DNA of 39,249 nucleotides from a virus. Taxonomy: Duplodnaviria > Heunggongvirae > Uroviricota > Caudoviricetes. The stretch is from IMG/VR virus record IMGVR_UViG_2869936548_000010, positions 1-39,249 of that record; one strand, given 5' to 3'. The notes under the pieces are model-generated. The model searched no databases. It worked only from the letters and a program-made list of their open reading frames with translations, and was not told the origin of the DNA. Below, in pieces: positions 191-18,307 of this stretch. The position numbers were made by a program, and so were the translations under genes. Each line of letters opens with the position of its first letter. Within the stretch, counting starts at the first letter, position 1.

Positions 191-208
191 TTTAAATCAA
201 TAAGTTAC
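145..208. repeat. attL: 64-bp direct repeat (3' part of tRNA-Thr plus 18 bp) identical to 37500-37563
   Basis: Exact repeat attcgtaatgcgaaggtcgtaggttcgactcctattatcggcaccatttaaatcaataagttac at both ends of the phage gene block; the int stop codon lies inside it. Confidence 0.85.
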
Positions 209-1365
209 CTCGCATTTAAGTAAACCACGTTCTCCTCTTGTGCCGTATTTGTGCCATTGCGACTTATAATCGCATCGATTTTGCTTGCGTGCTCGGTGAG
301 ATGCCCGGCTGAAAGGTGGGCGTATCTTTGAACCATTTCGAGAGTTTCCCATCCTCCCATCTCTTTAAGTGCAAGAAGAGAGACACCGGACTGAACCAGC
401 CAGCTTGCCCAGGTATGCCTCAGATCATGGAAGCGGAAGTTGCTAATGCCTGCCCGCTTTAACGCTCCCTTCCATGCCTTGTTGCTGTCGGTTCTCATCT
501 TCCTTACCGCTGCTGTTTTTGTTCCGTCGCTTCGGTAGGCAGGTTTGGTGTGGACAAATACCCATCTCTTATGGAGCCCCTGCTGTTTTCTTAATATCTG
601 GCATGCGGTTTCGTTAAGAGGAACTCCGATCGCATTGCCAGCTTTTGTTTCATCAGGGTGCATCCATGCCATTTTCTTATCCAGATCGACCTGTGACCAC
701 TCAAGGTCTGTAACGTTGGAACGGCGAAGGCCTGTCGTGATTGCAAACATGACCACAGGGAAGAAGTGAGGAGCAATTTCTGCAAACAGGCGCTTCGATT
801 CCTCCTCTGTAAGCCATCTGATGCGTCCATTCTTAACGCGTGGTGTTGATATTTTGGGTGCCCTGTCAAGCCATCCCCATTCAACAGCCATATTGAGAAT
901 GGCGCGAAGTATTGCCAGATGCCTCGTCTTCGTTCCTTTGCTTGCAAGCTTTGGTTTATACTCCGGCACCGGATTGCCAAGTCGCAAACACCTGTCCCGG
1001 CTCATCTCCCAGTTCAGGCGATGGCGGCGGTTTTCCATCCCGTCTACCGCCTCCATTATTTTTTCTGTTGTTATGTCAGAGAGAATGGCTTCTCTGAAGT
1101 GCAACATCCAGAACGATATAATGCTCTTGTCATCATCAATGGACTTCTTATCCGATTTCTCACGCAGCCACCGTATGCAGGCTTCCTTGAATAGCTTTTT
1201 CGGTGATTCCCCGAGATTTTTTACTCTCCACGCTTCTGCTTTCAGACGATCGTGAAGTTCTTGCGCTTGCCTTTTGTCCGATGTTTCAAGAGAGCGTCTA
1301 ACTCTTGATCCATCTGGCGCGACGAAATCGCAGTGCCACGTGCCACCGCGTAGTTTGATTGACAT
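205..1365 (-). CDS. int: Phage integrase, tyrosine recombinase (P22 Int-like)
   Basis: 386-aa ORF next to the tRNA; C-terminal catalytic region with [16 protein letters not shown] and YAHL motifs; its stop sits in the att core. Confidence 0.9.
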   Translation of the reverse strand: MSIKLRGGTWHCDFVAPDGSRVRRSLETSDKRQAQELHDRLKAEAWRVKNLGESPKKLFKEACIRWLREKSDKKSIDDDKSIISFWMLHFREAILSDITTEKIMEAVDGMENRRHRLNWEMSRDRCLRLGNPVPEYKPKLASKGTKTRHLAILRAILNMAVEWGWLDRAPKISTPRVKNGRIRWLTEEESKRLFAEIAPHFFPVVMFAITTGLRRSNVTDLEWSQVDLDKKMAWMHPDETKAGNAIGVPLNETACQILRKQQGLHKRWVFVHTKPAYRSDGTKTAAVRKMRTDSNKAWKGALKRAGISNFRFHDLRHTWASWLVQSGVSLLALKEMGGWETLEMVQRYAHLSAGHLTEHASKIDAIISRNGTNTAQEENVVYLNAR

Positions 1366-12346: not shown

Positions 12347-12513
12347 TTGACCCAAATCGAAGTTACGAACAAGAAAGCGTCGAGCGGGCTTTAACGTGCG
12401 CTAACTGCGGTCAGAAGCTGCATGTGCTGGAAGTTCACGTGTGCTCCGATTGCTGCGCAGAACTGATGAGCGATCCGAATAGCTCAATGTACGAGGAAGA
12501 AGACGATGAATGA
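12343..12513 (+). CDS. ninF: NinF
   Basis: C-terminal part of track ORF 12052..12513; GTGA overlap with the ninE stop (alternative ATG at 12319); resembles lambda NinF. Confidence 0.6.
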   Translation: MIDPNRSYEQESVERALTCANCGQKLHVLEVHVCSDCCAELMSDPNSSMYEEEDDE

Positions 12514-13228
12514 GTTAATAAATGGCAATGCCATCAAAATGACAAGCATTGAAATCGCTGAGTTGGTGGGTAAGCGTCATGACAATGTGAAACGTACCAT
12601 CGAAACGCTGGCTAAAAATGGTGTTATCCGGCTTCCTCAAATTGAGGTTTCCGAAAGAATCAATAACTTAGGGTTCAGTGTTCAGTACGAGCATTACGTC
12701 TTCGAAGGCGAACAAGGAAAGCGAGACAGTATTGTCGTTGTAGCCCAGTTGTCGCCGGAATTCACCGCTCGTCTTGTTGACCGTTGGCGAGAGCTTGAAG
12801 AAACTGCGGTTAATATCCCAAAAACGCTACCAGAAGCGTTGCGCCTTGCTGCTGATCTTGCTGAGCAGAAAATGCAACTGGAAAACCAGCTCGCAATTGC
12901 CGCACCTAAAGTTGAGTTTGCCGATCGCGTTGGCGAGGCCAGCGGAATTTTGATTGGAAACTTTGCAAAGGTTGTTGGAATTGGTCCAAACAAACTGTTT
13001 GCGTGGATGCGCGATCACAAAATCCTTATTGCTTCAGGTTCCCGGCGCAATGTGCCAATGCAGGAATATATGGATCGCGGCTATTTCACAGTGAAAGAAA
13101 CAGCGGTCAACACAAATCACGGAATACAGATATCGTTCACCACAAAAATCACCGGGCGTGGTCAACAGTGGCTGACCAGAAAGCTGCTCGATAACGGAAT
13201 GCTGAAAGTAACAGGGGAGGCTGCTTAA
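12506..13228 (+). CDS. Rha/KilA-C family regulatory (antirepressor-like) protein
   Basis: 240-aa ORF; N-terminal Rha-like DNA-binding region and C-terminal KilA-C-like region by recalled similarity. Confidence 0.65.
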   Translation: MNELINGNAIKMTSIEIAELVGKRHDNVKRTIETLAKNGVIRLPQIEVSERINNLGFSVQYEHYVFEGEQGKRDSIVVVAQLSPEFTARLVDRWRELEETAVNIPKTLPEALRLAADLAEQKMQLENQLAIAAPKVEFADRVGEASGILIGNFAKVVGIGPNKLFAWMRDHKILIASGSRRNVPMQEYMDRGYFTVKETAVNTNHGIQISFTTKITGRGQQWLTRKLLDNGMLKVTGEAA

Positions 13229-13877: not shown

Positions 13878-14062
13878 ACTCCACAATTCAAACGATACCA
13901 GAGCTTCTTATCCAGACACGAGGAAATCAGACCGAAGTGGCGAGGATGCTTTCCTGTGCAAGAGGAACAGTGCTCAAGTACAACCGAGACAGCAAAGGCG
14001 AACGTCACGTAATAGTTAACGGCGTCCTGATGGTCAAACAGGGCAAGAGGGGAAGACGATGA
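13874..14062 (+). CDS. ninH: NinH
   Basis: 62-aa ORF; GNQTEVARMLSCARGTVLKY matches the lambda NinH HTH region as recalled. Confidence 0.7.
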   Translation: MNSTIQTIPELLIQTRGNQTEVARMLSCARGTVLKYNRDSKGERHVIVNGVLMVKQGKRGRR

Positions 14063-14577
14063 GCATAAGAGAACTAAACCTCACCAAAGAGCAGCACGAT
14101 TGGCTGAATGGATGGCTTGAACTGTGGGGCGCATGGGTTTATTCAGGTCGTCTGGAAAAGCGCATGAGCAGCGTAATAGCGAAGTTCATGGAGAGCGTAG
14201 AGCCGGGAAGAGTTATGACAAGGCCAATGTGTAATGATGATGATGGAATGTTGATTTCTCAGGTCGTCGATTCCGTCATGTACATTGACAAGAAAGCCTT
14301 TGGCATCCTCCTCAGCTACTACGCTCATGGTTCATCTAAGCGAGCAATTGCATCCTACTATCACGCGACTGCAAAGCCACGCAAGATGTGTGGACGTGGT
14401 GGCGAGGGATGGAGAAAACCTTCACTGGCAACCTGTAGAAACGAAATTGACGATATCCTGAAAGCGTCGTTATTTGTTTTGTACCAGCCAATGCAAAATG
14501 CTTTCAAAATGCGTAAACGTGTTGAGAAAGTTAAGCATATTGCTGTTAAAAGCCTTGACATGCAATTATCCATTTAG
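14059..14577 (+). CDS. Late-gene antiterminator Q (P22 gene 23 family, not lambda-Q type)
   Basis: 172-aa ORF in the Q position between ninH and the lysis cassette; family assignment from recalled similarity. Confidence 0.7.
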   Translation: MSIRELNLTKEQHDWLNGWLELWGAWVYSGRLEKRMSSVIAKFMESVEPGRVMTRPMCNDDDGMLISQVVDSVMYIDKKAFGILLSYYAHGSSKRAIASYYHATAKPRKMCGRGGEGWRKPSLATCRNEIDDILKASLFVLYQPMQNAFKMRKRVEKVKHIAVKSLDMQLSI

Positions 14578-15399: not shown

Positions 15400-15859
15400 T
15401 CAACGTAAGGCGTTCCTCGATATGCTGGCGTGGTCAGAGGGAACTGATAACGGACGTCAAAAAACCAGAAATCATGGTTATGACGTCATTGTTGGCGGAG
15501 AGCTATTCACTGATTACTCTGATCACCCTCGCAAACTTGTCACGCTAAATCCGAAACTCAAATCAACAGCCGCCGGACGCTACCAGCTTCTTTCCCGTTG
15601 GTGGGATGCCTACCGTAAGCAGCTTGGCCTGAAAGACTTCTCTCCGAAAAGCCAGGACGCTGTGGCACTGCAACAGATTAAAGAGCGTGGCGCTTTACCG
15701 ATGATTGATCGCGGTGATATTCGTCAGGCTATCGACCGTTGCAGCAATATCTGGGCTTCACTGCCTGGCGCTGGTTATGGTCAGTTCGAGCATAAGGCTG
15801 ACAGCCTGATTGCAAAATTCAAAGAGGCAGGCGGAACGGTCAGAGAGATTGAGGTATGA
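15383..15859 (+). CDS. R: Endolysin R (lytic transglycosylase)
   Basis: 158-aa ORF, near-identical to lambda R as recalled. Confidence 0.95.
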
Positions 15860-16293
15860 GCAAAGTAACCGCGATTATCTCCGCTCTGGTTATCTGCATC
15901 ATCGTTTGCCTGTCATGGGCTGTTAATCACTACCGTGATAACGCCATCGCCTACAAAGAGCAGCGCGATAAGGCCGCATCCACAATTGCTGACATGCAGA
16001 AGCGTCAACGTGATGTAGCAGAACTCGATGCCAGATATACAAAGGAGCTTGCTGATGCTAACGCGACTATCGAAAGTCTCCGTGCTGATGTTTCTGCTGG
16101 GCGTAAGCGCCTGCAAGTCGCCGCCACCTGTGCAAAGTCAACGACCGGAGCCAGCAGCATGGGCGATGGAGAAAGCCCAAGACTTACAGCAGATGCTGAA
16201 CTCAATTATTACCGTCTACGAAGCGGAATCGACAGGATAACCGCGCAGGTTAACTACCTGCAGGAGTACATCAGGACGCAATGCCTTCGATGA
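15856..16293 (+). CDS. Rz: Spanin inner-membrane subunit Rz
   Basis: 145-aa ORF; N-terminal TM segment identical to lambda Rz, divergent periplasmic part. Confidence 0.85.
16055..16240 (+). CDS. Rz1: Spanin outer-membrane lipoprotein Rz1 (embedded in Rz, +1 frame)
   Basis: Internal Met of track ORF 16028..16240; lipobox LLGVSAC followed by a proline-rich stretch. Confidence 0.7.
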
Positions 16294-16467
16294 TAGCGAT
16301 AATTTTACTCATCATCCTTCACATCTGGCTCTGTAGACAGGGTGATGATCACTTCTGGAGTGAATCCAGATTAAACATCTCATTGCTGATGCTTGATATT
16401 GAGCATCTGGCGCGCGGTAAGGGGCTGCGTTGAGATAAGAGCCAGTCATTACAAATACCAGGATTTA

Positions 16468-16491
16468 GCCTCGCATTTGCGGGGCTTTTTT
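16468..16491 (+). terminator. Intrinsic terminator after the lysis cassette
   Basis: Hairpin gcctcgc-attt-gcggggc followed by tttttt. Confidence 0.55.
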
Positions 16492-16637
16492 ACATCTGCA
16501 GTAAACCGCGCATCGCAGCGCGTAACAATCCCGAGTCTTTCAGAAAGCTGAGCCTGAGAATTGCCGTATATGGTGGCGACCATCTCGGGGGCGGCTTTTC
16601 TGTGCGAACAGGCTCATCTTTCTAAAAGGTAAACGCT

Positions 16638-17123
16638 ATGAATAACTTTGTTGAAATTACCTCAAGAATTGGTCGCATGTACCAAGATTTTCTTATAAGT
16701 GGAAAGGGGTCTGGCGACATCATAGAGGAAATTGACAAGCTAAGTGCAGAGCTGAGAAGGAATGGGTGTGTTAATTCTATCTTTTTTGAAACTTTGCTAA
16801 AGCAAGGCTTTATGTTTGACATGATTAATTACAACAAAGTCGCACCCAGTGCTTCGCAAAAATCATATGTGTACGTTCTGCATGCTGAAGATAGTGGGCT
16901 AACAAAAATAGGGTTTAGTCGCAGGGTTAATAAACGAATTTCAGAGATATCTCGCATGAGTGGTGGGAAGCTAAATCTAATTGCAAAGATTCCGGCCGAT
17001 AGAGAGCTTGAAACCAAATTGCACCAAAAATATTACAACTATAGGTCGCACGGGGAGTGGTTTAGCCTCAATCGTTGTCATTTGAAAGAGCTAAAAGAAA
17101 TGCCTGGTAACGAACTGAAATAA
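16638..17123 (+). CDS. T5orf172 (GIY-YIG-like) domain protein; moron
   Basis: 161-aa ORF; C-terminal half YVYVLHAEDSGLTKIGFSRRVNKRISEIS...HGEWFSL fits the T5orf172 pattern as recalled; gene is visibly AT-rich. Confidence 0.6.
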   Translation: MNNFVEITSRIGRMYQDFLISGKGSGDIIEEIDKLSAELRRNGCVNSIFFETLLKQGFMFDMINYNKVAPSASQKSYVYVLHAEDSGLTKIGFSRRVNKRISEISRMSGGKLNLIAKIPADRELETKLHQKYYNYRSHGEWFSLNRCHLKELKEMPGNELK

Positions 17124-17371
17124 TCCCCGGACTCACTAATTAACGGCAGTACAGCGAAACAACCCAAGCCAGTAAGTGGGGAAATAACACTGGCAGCCAC
17201 TGAAAGATGAACCTCCTGCCTTATGGCAAAAAAAGATTCTTTGTGGTGGCGGACTGATGGAAAGACATCGGTTATTGCAGAGACCATTCAATGAGTGGTC
17301 TCGACAATGGCTTATACCCTACACGGGATAACTTAACTGATATCCCTTTTAACGGATAAACGGAGCCAACA

Positions 17372-17614
17372 ATGGCAGAGATTATTCCCATGACTGAAGA
17401 ACAGAAATTCCAGTTAGAGATTTACAAACTGGTCATGAACCAGAACGCAGCCGCAGAAGAAGCATTTCAGTTCATTGGCACTGACGAGCTGAAGCTTGAG
17501 CTATTCAAAATTCACTTCCAGTCAGGTGGCGCTAATTCAGATATCACGACCCGAACTATCGAAGCGGTGCGTAAATCGAAGGAAGCGTTAGACCTGTTTA
17601 CTACCGGAGCATGA
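17372..17614 (+). CDS. Hypothetical protein (position of P22 orf80)
   Basis: 80-aa ORF upstream of the terminase genes. Confidence 0.5.
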   Translation: MAEIIPMTEEQKFQLEIYKLVMNQNAAAEEAFQFIGTDELKLELFKIHFQSGGANSDITTRTIEAVRKSKEALDLFTTGA

Positions 17615-17615
17615 T

Positions 17616-17795
17616 GTGAGCCGCGTAATCAATTTGGGTAAGGAGAAGAAATTCCCAATTACTCAAGAGCTATACGAGCGGCTTGAAAGCGTTATTCATG
17701 ATTATGATGGTGAAATCAGTTTATGCGAGGCGATTGGTACACTCGAATTGCTGAAGCAGTCACTGATTGAAGGCGCGAAAGAGTCCTTAACCTGA
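17616..17795 (+). CDS. Small ORF (59 aa, GTG start), not in the ORF track
   Basis: GTG 17616 preceded by GGAG; directly follows the stop of the upstream gene. Confidence 0.3.
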   Translation: MSRVINLGKEKKFPITQELYERLESVIHDYDGEISLCEAIGTLELLKQSLIEGAKESLT

Positions 17796-17818
17796 AATAA
17801 CGATTAAGTGAGATGAAT

Positions 17819-18307
17819 ATGGCAGCACCAAAGGGCAACCGATTTTGGGAGGCCCGCAGTAGTCATGGGCGAAACCCTAAATTCGAATCGCCTGAGGCGC
17901 TGTGGGCTGCTTGTTGTGAATACTTCGAGTGGGCTGATGATAACCCGCTATGGGAGGGTAAGGTATTTTCATATCAGGGAGAAATAATTAAGGCTAATGT
18001 CCCTAAGATGCGAGCCATGACTATTTCAGGATTGTGTACCTTCCTTGATATCACCAGGCAAACATGGGGAACCTTCCGGTCAATGGAAGGTTTTTCTGAC
18101 GTCACATCACGAGCGGAAGACATCATCTACGACCAGAAGTTCTCTGGCGCAGCCGCTGACCTTCTCAACGCTAACATCATCGCCCGTGATTTGGGCCTCA
18201 AAGAGCAGTCGCAAGTTGAAGACGTGACACCTGATAAGGGAGATCGCGATAAGCGGCGCTCTCGTATCAAGGAGCTATTCAACCGTGGAACTGGACGCGA
18301 TTCTTGA
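17819..18307 (+). CDS. Terminase small subunit (P22 gp3 type)
   Basis: Start at ATG 17819 ([21 protein letters not shown]) gives 162 aa, the P22 gp3 length as recalled; track start 17813. Confidence 0.85.

Follow-up and report, generated by a model that had tools for sequence, protein, structure and literature searches.

What is the function of a small, AT-rich gene that lies between the lysis genes and the DNA packaging genes of a P22-like prophage? The question is raised by an open reading frame (ORF) for 161 amino acids (16638..17123, + strand, ATG at 16638; PHROG 4284) in a stretch of caudovirus DNA of 39,249 nucleotides (IMG/VR record IMGVR_UViG_2869936548_000010, positions 1 to 39,249), which is referred to here as the window and which is a P22-like prophage. 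The protein consists of an N-terminal helical bundle similar to HkbL of phage HK620 and a C-terminal nuclease domain of the T5orf172 class. We propose, at slightly less than an even chance, that it is a compact T5orf172-class endonuclease that is made late and acts in conflicts between mobile elements; the nuclease activity, the expression, the role of the N-terminal domain, and the target in this proposal are what we infer from the evidence described below.

That the ORF is a real gene under purifying selection and no chance reading frame is indicated by a full-length match to PHROG 4284 (E-value, E = 1.4e-75) and by a ratio of nonsynonymous to synonymous substitution rates (dN/dS) of approximately 0.15 over both halves, calculated with homologues at 59–62% identity; because dS is saturated between homologues of about 60% identity, these ratios are rough. 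The 161-residue protein is 100% identical to gp68 of Salmonella phage epsilon34, g341c gp64, and an ORF of NM-3. The RefSeq name of the identical proteins, "GIY-YIG nuclease family protein", agrees with our identification, and the gene is a known, annotated one. Our literature searches found no functional study of it, and text searches of the epsilon34 genome paper gave no mention of gene 68 or gp68. The guanine-plus-cytosine (GC) content of the ORF is 0.389 (0.395 at third codon positions) versus 0.472 for the window and 0.44–0.53 for the neighboring genes, in agreement with the AT-richness noted in a preliminary description of this locus. Homologues of the ORF are likewise 4–10 GC points lower than their own loci.

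The assignment of the C-terminal domain (residues 77–154; 16866..17099, + strand) to the T5orf172 class of GIY-YIG nucleases is well supported by profile, fold, and motif evidence. With the curated Pfam thresholds applied, residues 90–154 matched MUG113 (E = 4.2e-13, 50.1 bits against a cut-off of 22.3) and residues 77–154 matched T5orf172 (E = 1.1e-9, 39.2 bits against a cut-off of 20); these two families are a clan pair (PF10544 and PF13455) forming the T5orf172/MUG113 branch of the GIY-YIG superfamily. The predicted fold is the alpha/beta fold of GIY-YIG domains, a three-stranded sheet flanked by helices, and its top structural matches are SLX1-type structure-specific nucleases. The T5orf172/GIY-YIG call of the preliminary description was thus borne out by profile scores above the Pfam cut-offs, with which the fold and the motif agree. 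A search of NCBIfam with the protein gave no match. Among 1.84 billion cluster representatives, 5717 relatives of the C-terminal domain were found, a handful of which also span the N-terminus.

Conservation of the putative active site is directly visible in alignments of 15 and 25 sequences, in which Tyr79, Lys90, Ile91, Gly92, Arg100, Glu125, His129, Glu140, Trp141, and Phe142 are invariant down to 18% identity. The codons of Tyr79, Lys90, and Arg100 are at 16872–16874, 16905–16907, and 16935–16937, and those of Glu125, His129, and Glu140 are at 17010–17012, 17022–17024, and 17055–17057, respectively. The spacing Y-x11-K-x9-R reproduces the GIY...YIG...R pattern, and a profile search of the PDB aligned Y..KIG..R with the motif of T4 EndoII, the best PDB match being marginal (E = 0.012). 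The protein differs from the canonical GIY-YIG enzymes (I-TevI, SLX1/HIGLE, T4 EndoII, UvrC, and R.Eco29kI) in that the sequence similarity is marginal and their second Tyr is Lys in the protein; in I-TevI the domain order is also reversed, with the nuclease at the N-terminus.

A further comparison is that with Odn (gp88) of phage ICP1, a phage-encoded origin-directed nuclease that destroys the PLE satellite (PMC8263062). Odn also has a C-terminal T5orf172 domain (hhalign probability 92%, E = 6e-7); the two proteins share the Tyr, the K/I-G, the Arg, and the Glu, and both lack a His/Tyr in helix 1. Glu125 was aligned with Odn Glu180 by profile alignment, and the E180A substitution in Odn led to loss of cleavage both in vitro and in vivo (PMC8263062). 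We consider that the protein is probably an active nuclease. Outside this domain the two differ, since the RepA_N-like N-terminus of Odn reads PLE iterons whereas the N-terminal domain of the protein is HkbL-like, and the genetic setting and the host are not the same; kinship between the two N-termini was tried and rejected (probability 0.9%). An alternative without catalysis is a protein that binds DNA or regulates, such as a modulator resembling an antirepressor; it would be a functional parallel to the Rha and KilA-N proteins found at this site in other phages, would accord with an N-terminal domain in common with the KilA-N-associated HkbL, and would fit the presence of relatives in islands with Arc, Bro-N, and Rha genes. 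However, the family-wide invariance of the active-site residues, including the Glu matching Odn Glu180, would be unexpected if catalysis were dispensable, and the fold matches nucleases, so that we regard a purely regulatory protein as quite improbable.

The N-terminal domain (residues 1–68; 16638..16841, + strand) is predicted by AlphaFold2 as a three-helix bundle with helices at residues 2–21, 25–41, and 47–68 and a mean predicted local distance difference test score of 90.5. The preliminary description had left the N-terminal half unassigned, which holds for Pfam and NCBIfam, where no family matches residues 1–70, but does not hold for comparison by hhalign. Following a weak match to PHROG 875, alignment of the N-terminal profile with HK620 HkbL (85 residues) by hhalign gave a probability of 98.6% and E = 7e-16, with 29% identity over 68 columns. 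The cross-hits between the PHROGs are reciprocal: the N-terminal domain hits phrog_875 (2.4e-7) and HkbL hits phrog_4284 (4.3e-6). A database search with a profile of the N-terminal domain only retrieved the fused family and nothing else. These profile comparisons identify residues 1–68 as homologous to HK620 HkbL (PHROG 875). Because the N-terminal domain is about neutral (net charge −1 by residue count) and the nuclease domain is basic (+7 by the same count), the former is unlikely to be the DNA-reading part, and its role would more probably be partner binding or oligomerization than the reading of a DNA sequence. No zinc finger, helix-turn-helix, or NUMOD domain was detected in the protein with Pfam even at E ≤ 1, and its single Cys is not conserved.

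HkbL-like genes are present in 57 phage records. In all four loci inspected, the HkbL-like gene comes directly 3′ of a KilA-N gene, which it either overlaps by 4 nt or follows at a distance of 2 nt (HK620 hkbK/hkbL, HK97 p60/p61, mEp235 gp59/gp60, and Klebsiella RAH1 ORF56/57), and the HkbL-like genes were located at 2331–2588 in locus L002 (HK620 hkbL), 1801–2034 in L107 (HK97 p61), 1801–2058 in L108, and 2501–2755 in L109. The KilA-N partners carry ORF11CD3 or P63C. The pair looks like a conserved two-gene module, which is found in tail-gene islands as well as in the lysis-to-packaging slot. HkbL, HK97 p61, and mEp235 gp60 (PHROG 875) resemble residues 1–68 and lie either in this slot or in a comparable tail-gene island, but they are stand-alone proteins of 77–85 residues with no nuclease domain, encoded after a KilA-N+ORF11CD3 or a KilA-N+P63C gene. 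Similar neighbors are seen for the fused family, whose gene has a 4-nt overlap with a Rha gene in L015 and is followed by a KilA-N+P63C gene in L014. An adjacent KilA-N or Rha partner gene was sought across the window with 11 query proteins and none was found, the sole network match being a distant one at 12506–13228; this ORF lies in the nin region, and its C-terminal part is 34% identical over 100 residues to ICP1 gp89 (Ant/Bro-N-type). As an outside chance, the HkbL-like bundle could be a dedicated adaptor that joins effector modules to KilA-N/Rha-type DNA-binding proteins, in which case gp68 would be the catalytic half of a split nuclease targeted in trans and the slot, together with the covarying hairpin of its leader and the common start codon, would be a site of lambdoid late operons purpose-built for the exchange of such conflict modules. 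Such an adaptor would cover both forms of the bundle, fused to a GIY-YIG nuclease here and free-standing beside KilA-N in HK620 and HK97.

The gene occupies a slot with sharply defined borders. The final gene of the lysis cassette is the i-spanin gene Rz (15856..16293, + strand; Pfam Phage_lysis, E = 8e-37), in which Rz1 (16028–16240) is embedded, and it is followed by a small ORF for 50 amino acids (16281..16433, + strand), a homologue of epsilon34 gp67 and Sf6 gp65 that moves with the cassette flank and is 92–100% identical across 30 cassette-bearing loci. An intrinsic terminator-like hairpin (16467–16486) and its T run (16467..16492, + strand) mark the boundary between the lysis genes and the cassette, and the same terminator is annotated as rho-independent in epsilon34, HK106, and mEp235. 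The terminator that the preliminary description had placed after the lysis genes is therefore present, downstream of Rz and of the gp67-like ORF. By contrast, the view that a single gene precedes the packaging genes has to be revised, since approximately 250 bp of conserved non-coding DNA, orf80 (DUF2560; 17372..17614, + strand; Pfam E = 1e-43; phrog_571), and orf59 (a homologue of HK620 hkbN; 17616..17795, + strand; phrog_3546, E = 1e-42) intervene before the gene of the P22 gp3-type small terminase subunit, TerS (17813..18307, + strand; Pfam GP3_package, E = 9e-31). Both orf80 and orf59 lie between the cassette and the terminase genes, and orf80 is outside the cassette.

The breakpoints of homology were determined by BLAST against seven related phages, and the cassette boundaries are directly observed in these comparisons. 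On the left, homology with HK620, E212, CUS-3, and HK106 covers the terminator and a leader of approximately 150 nt and stops at 16642–16644, that is, at the ATG plus 2–4 nt. The left mosaic breakpoint coincides with a shared ribosome-binding site (AAGG) and start codon ATG (16626..16640, + strand), which are common to the Rha, KilA-N, and T5orf172 cassettes; Kapi1 lacks the leader. On the right, homology restarts at 17121, the stop codon, in P22-like phage 25 and CUS-3, and at 17134–17143 in HK620, HK106, Kapi1, E212, and Sf6. This right breakpoint opens a conserved non-coding flank (17121..17371, + strand). The occupants of the slot, as identified by Pfam, are Rha+ORF11CD3 in P22-like phage 25 and CUS-3, KilA-N+ORF11CD3 in E212, KilA-N+ORF11CD3 plus HkbL in HK620, and a Tad2-like protein (PF11195) in Kapi1. 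The slot is empty in Sf6, where window position 16455 is joined to 17143 via about 115 bp and gp66 occupies another slot, close to window position 17270. The usual occupants, P22 orf201 (Rha) and HK620 HkbK (KilA-N), have the leader, the ribosome-binding site, the ATG, the downstream flank, and the late-operon position in common with the ORF; they are nevertheless unrelated proteins, in which a DNA-binding Rha or KilA-N domain is combined with ORF11CD3 and there is no nuclease domain. HK106 carries a family member that is 31% identical to the protein between flanks that are 84% (left) and 97.5% (right) identical to the window. Because the protein has diverged so much further than its flanks, the sequences indicate that old alleles are exchanged within young, shared flanks.

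Several further observations were made at the borders. A 9-bp sequence, cattacaaa, is located at 16447–16455, just upstream of the terminator, in the window and in HK620; a second copy lies 3′ of the cassette ORF in HK620, E212, and Kapi1 (L002, L004, and L005, respectively), and a single copy is present at the empty slot of Sf6 (L003, about 1348–1358). This 9-bp sequence may mark a junction left by deletion or insertion, or it may be a short boundary element. Across P22-like phages, the HK97-like HK106, and others, the non-coding part of the right flank (17124–17371, approximately 250 bp) keeps an identity of 92–98%. A minus-strand hairpin that resembles a terminator (17233–17212) lies within it, and the epsilon34 annotation describes part of it as resembling the N-terminus of ST64T orf118. 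At approximately 17270–17358 there is another insertion hot spot, where Sf6 has gp66 and P22-like phage 25 has a 630-bp insert. The annotated Rha ORFs of CUS-3 (L007, 1471–1542) and P22-like phage 25 (L006, 1220–1290) begin about 23 codons upstream of the shared ATG, inside the structured leader, and the annotated starts of Rha (P22 orf201-type) may therefore be too long; the counterpart of this 5′ stretch in the window is a 20-codon upstream ORF (16571–16633) that terminates shortly before the ATG. We rejected the idea of flanks that are debris of a displaced rha: the conserved ATG lies 23 codons into the annotated CUS-3 Rha, in the same reading frame, and the stop codon of P22-type Rha coincides with that of the ORF, which indicates shared cassette borders.

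The position of the gene is also conserved beyond these phages. In 39 surveyed loci with full-length relatives, the gene is downstream of lysis genes and upstream of packaging genes in 35, as judged from a marker recognized on at least one side, and the order of lysis genes, gene, and packaging genes is broken in none. The allele of at least 99% identity occurs alongside five or more TerS types, and the Rz variants that accompany it are 46–100% identical. Relatives at 59–61% identity hold the same position in Erwinia and metagenomic phages, as does a relative at 30% identity (P0024), and the holin, lysin, and terminase families differ in these loci. Epsilon34 gp68, g341c gp64, and the NM-3 ORF share this location, with Rz, the small ORF, and the terminator on the upstream side and the DUF2560 gene on the downstream side; epsilon34 differs further downstream, where gp70/gp71 follow the DUF2560 gene whereas the window has orf59 and gp3-type TerS. 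In Escherichia phage HK106, an HK97-like siphovirus, gp64 has the same two-domain architecture (PHROG 4284, E = 2e-86) and the same slot after Rz and a terminator; apart from its identity of approximately 31%, it differs in its downstream neighbors, which are a gp74-type HNH gene and cos and not packaging genes of the P22 type. Two distant members sit in accessory islands of the tail gene cluster, upstream of the tape-measure gene (as shown in L015), and these islands (L014 and L015) also hold Arc, Bro-N, Rha, KilA-N, and Imm_superinfect genes.

A place immediately before the packaging genes in a late operon, the SLX1-type nucleases among the top structural matches, and the lack of a sequence-reading domain would suit a packaging helper, namely a nuclease of the SLX1 kind with structure specificity, which would trim the branched intermediates of replication or recombination ahead of the terminase, in a position analogous to that of the HNH protein gp74 of HK97. 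Most related phages, however, have unrelated genes or nothing in the slot and package normally, HK106 holds both a PHROG 4284 member and the HNH gene, and the distant members are in tail-gene islands far from the terminase. We therefore consider a helper of this type very improbable.

The gene is a minority allele, present at approximately 1–2% of sites. Of 5426 complete E. coli genomes, 2649 show a match to some portion of the 1.6-kb stretch that surrounds the gene, whereas only 58 carry the gene itself, E. coli W among them; 56 of the 58 have a single copy at at least 99% identity, and the copies are intact in 57. Among phage records matching the region, 5 of 245 have the gene. The comparison of this junction across related phages that was suggested in the preliminary description showed that the gene is not conserved at this position in all P22-like phages. 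Two metagenomic relatives have unusual forms: P0014 is a chimera of an Rz-like N-terminus and the last ~40 residues of the protein (from about residue 121), and in P0010, a 183-residue form, the upstream ORF of the leader is fused in frame to the gene. These are either signs of frequent rearrangement at the junction or assembly artefacts.

Presence or absence at a conserved site (Sf6 is empty), the AT-rich composition, and the spread of an allele of at least 99% identity over many mosaic backgrounds in Salmonella and E. coli are features of a classical free-standing homing endonuclease, which would cut a specific site in alleles lacking the gene or in a nearby conserved gene so that repair copies the cassette, with no gain for the phage. 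T5orf172 proteins are the main putative homing class in ICP1, T5-like, and other phages, and their genes cluster near terminase genes and the boundaries of genetic exchange (PMC10448857). The C-terminal position of the nuclease in the protein and the frequent proximity to terminase genes match these proteins, 35% of the surveyed T5orf172 homing genes adjoining terminase genes (Barth et al. 2023, PMC10448857), and the same prophage holds a second free-standing gene, of the HNH_3 type (32276–32815). In the same survey, however, 87% had CapR, DUF723, or DUF4397 zinc fingers (Barth et al. 2023, PMC10448857), whereas no zinc finger, NUMOD, helix-turn-helix, or other DNA-binding domain was found in the protein with Pfam, and at 161 residues it is much smaller. 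Its N-terminal domain is a non-basic helical bundle homologous to a stand-alone KilA-N companion. Strong purifying selection on both domains and intact copies in 57 of 58 genomes contrast with the decay expected of a purely selfish element, and the slot position is kept across lineages whose neighboring genes, the candidate targets, differ. A homing endonuclease in the classical sense is for these reasons unlikely.

The time at which the gene is expressed bears on a further possibility. The late region of the window starts with the Q antiterminator gene (14059–14577), followed by the genes of holin, endolysin, and Rz/Rz1 and then those of gp3-type TerS, the large terminase subunit TerL, and the P22 portal. 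A consensus scan for sigma-70-like promoters found none in 16200–17900 versus 3.1 expected by chance, a scan that weak or non-sigma-70 promoters could escape. Upstream of the gene lies the sole + strand terminator candidate whose stem is solid; the ORF itself contains a weak hairpin of 6 bp (16792–16807), and 3′ of the gene there is no + strand terminator candidate. Because no promoter was found, the terminator is upstream, and the Q antiterminator heads the operon, the most economical reading of the gene order is that the gene belongs to the Q-dependent late operon and would be transcribed late. The term "moron" used in the preliminary description fits in so far as this is an extra gene at a site that is empty in Sf6 and has a deviant base composition, but neither a promoter of its own nor a downstream terminator was found, and the gene looks like a late-operon cassette rather than an autonomous moron.

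The late operon is silent in lysogens of Q-dependent phages. A superinfection-exclusion or defence nuclease, expressed from the prophage and degrading incoming phage DNA in the lysogen, is therefore difficult to reconcile with a gene that lies behind a terminator within the late operon and has no sigma-70-like promoter either between the terminator and the ATG or elsewhere in 16200–17900. A search of PADLOC-DB v2 gave only PDC-S57 (18 bits, E = 4e-4, a domain-level match) and PDC-M64B (E = 0.03), with no partner genes. The weak match to PDC-S57, the Imm_superinfect gene beside the relative in L015, and an AT-rich composition like that of other accessory genes would speak for such a function; against it, the protein is in no validated PADLOC family and has no membrane anchor, sensor domain, or partner gene. 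It differs from SNIPE (DUF4041+GIY-YIG) and PD-T4-3 in having no transmembrane segment and no DUF4041 and in being encoded in a phage late operon, not in a host defence island. The Tad2-like alternative occupant is, moreover, the kind of gene that serves a lytic phage, and we judge an exclusion function in the lysogen improbable. This occupant, Kapi1_043 of Escherichia phage Kapi1 (L005, 1416–1937), matches PF11195, a family named for Thoeris anti-defence 2, with E = 4e-26, and the slot may thus also carry a counter-defence gene.

The leader in front of the cassette contains a long imperfect RNA hairpin (16542..16623, + strand; covarying core 16550–16615) with a minimum free energy of −36.7 kcal/mol and a z-score of −3.3. 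RNAalifold detected compensatory changes in 10 of the 20–22 pairs of the hairpin, across cassette types. The cells of the hairpin are paired in 92.6% and 90.8% of cases in two alignments versus 38–55% in slid controls. For the first alignment, the observed value was out of reach of all 500 shuffles in each of five measures; for the covariance-model alignment this was so in four measures, and in the fifth the observed value was reached by 50 of 500. With the covariance model, the hairpin was located in 30 loci, where it precedes a cassette of the T5orf172, KilA-N, or Rha type (L002, L004, L006, L007, L008, L010, L012, L017, and others), and Rfam has no family for the leader or for the conserved non-coding DNA downstream. 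Candidate roles for the hairpin are an RNase III site, an attenuator, and translational control.

Taken together, a late-made endonuclease would work as follows. A nuclease domain with the intact site set Tyr79, Lys90, Arg100, and Glu125 would cut DNA, and the HkbL-like bundle would provide partner binding or dimerization. The ORF belongs to a set of interchangeable cassettes with ORF-precise borders, which share a recombination hot spot at the lysis/packaging boundary of lambdoid phages; most of them are placed behind a terminator and a conserved structured leader that supplies a common ribosome-binding site and start codon. It would be transcribed late from the Q-antiterminated operon. The enzyme would then cleave the DNA of relatives or satellites present in the same cell, whether co-resident or co-infecting, and these breaks would also favor inheritance of the cassette, with homing-like spread as a by-product. 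Taken by itself, a biological role in conflicts between mobile elements is possible, at a chance well below even.

Several points weigh against this interpretation. The protein and its close relatives are known only as sequences, and the late timing is read from gene order. The putative active site departs from the canonical one in having Lys90 in place of the second Tyr and no His/Tyr four residues past Arg100, though the active Odn is alike in both respects. With no DNA-binding domain detected, target specificity would be without an explained source. The low allele frequency (about 1–2% of sites) is not suggestive of efficient drive. The flanks of carriers are 98–99% identical to the window and those of non-carriers 96–99%, and no signal of co-conversion was seen in this crude comparison. 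Finally, ORF-precise borders are found equally in the non-nuclease Rha and KilA-N cassettes, so that exchange at the slot needs no nuclease.

Other features of the window complete the picture of the prophage. A tRNA-Thr gene (115–190) adjoins the integrase gene (205–1365, minus strand). The HNH_3 endonuclease gene mentioned above (32276–32815, minus strand; 179 residues, Pfam E = 2e-20) is just upstream of the tailspike gene and is a second putative free-standing nuclease gene of the same prophage; its position is that of the "ant moron" in P22-like phages. In the tailspike region (32828–34589) there are two ORFs, for 399 and 200 amino acids, which overlap at 33987–34027, with a Head_binding domain in 32828–34027; this may reflect a disruption of the tailspike gene or an unusual type of it. 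Three minus-strand ORFs beyond this region (34656–37210) are presumably gtrABC-like, an assumption based on their position and size.

The new elements in this analysis are the homology of the N-terminal domain to HkbL, the ORF-precise structure of the cassette, the lysis-to-terminase position across lineages, and the structured leader. Unless a function is demonstrated, current understanding remains as it is. PHROG 4284 and PHROG 875, which are listed as function-unknown in PHROGs v4, could be given more specific annotations. The link between the N-terminal domain and HkbL is a first handle on a widespread small companion protein of KilA-N, and the cassette site and its leader illustrate how accessory genes are swapped at the lysis/packaging boundary of lambdoid phages. 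Should the protein prove active as a nuclease, then well-studied, tractable phages and prophages (epsilon34, HK106, and E. coli W) would offer a T5orf172 enzyme of minimal size (161 residues), a convenient model for target finding without a classical DNA-binding domain in this abundant but little-characterized group of phage nucleases.

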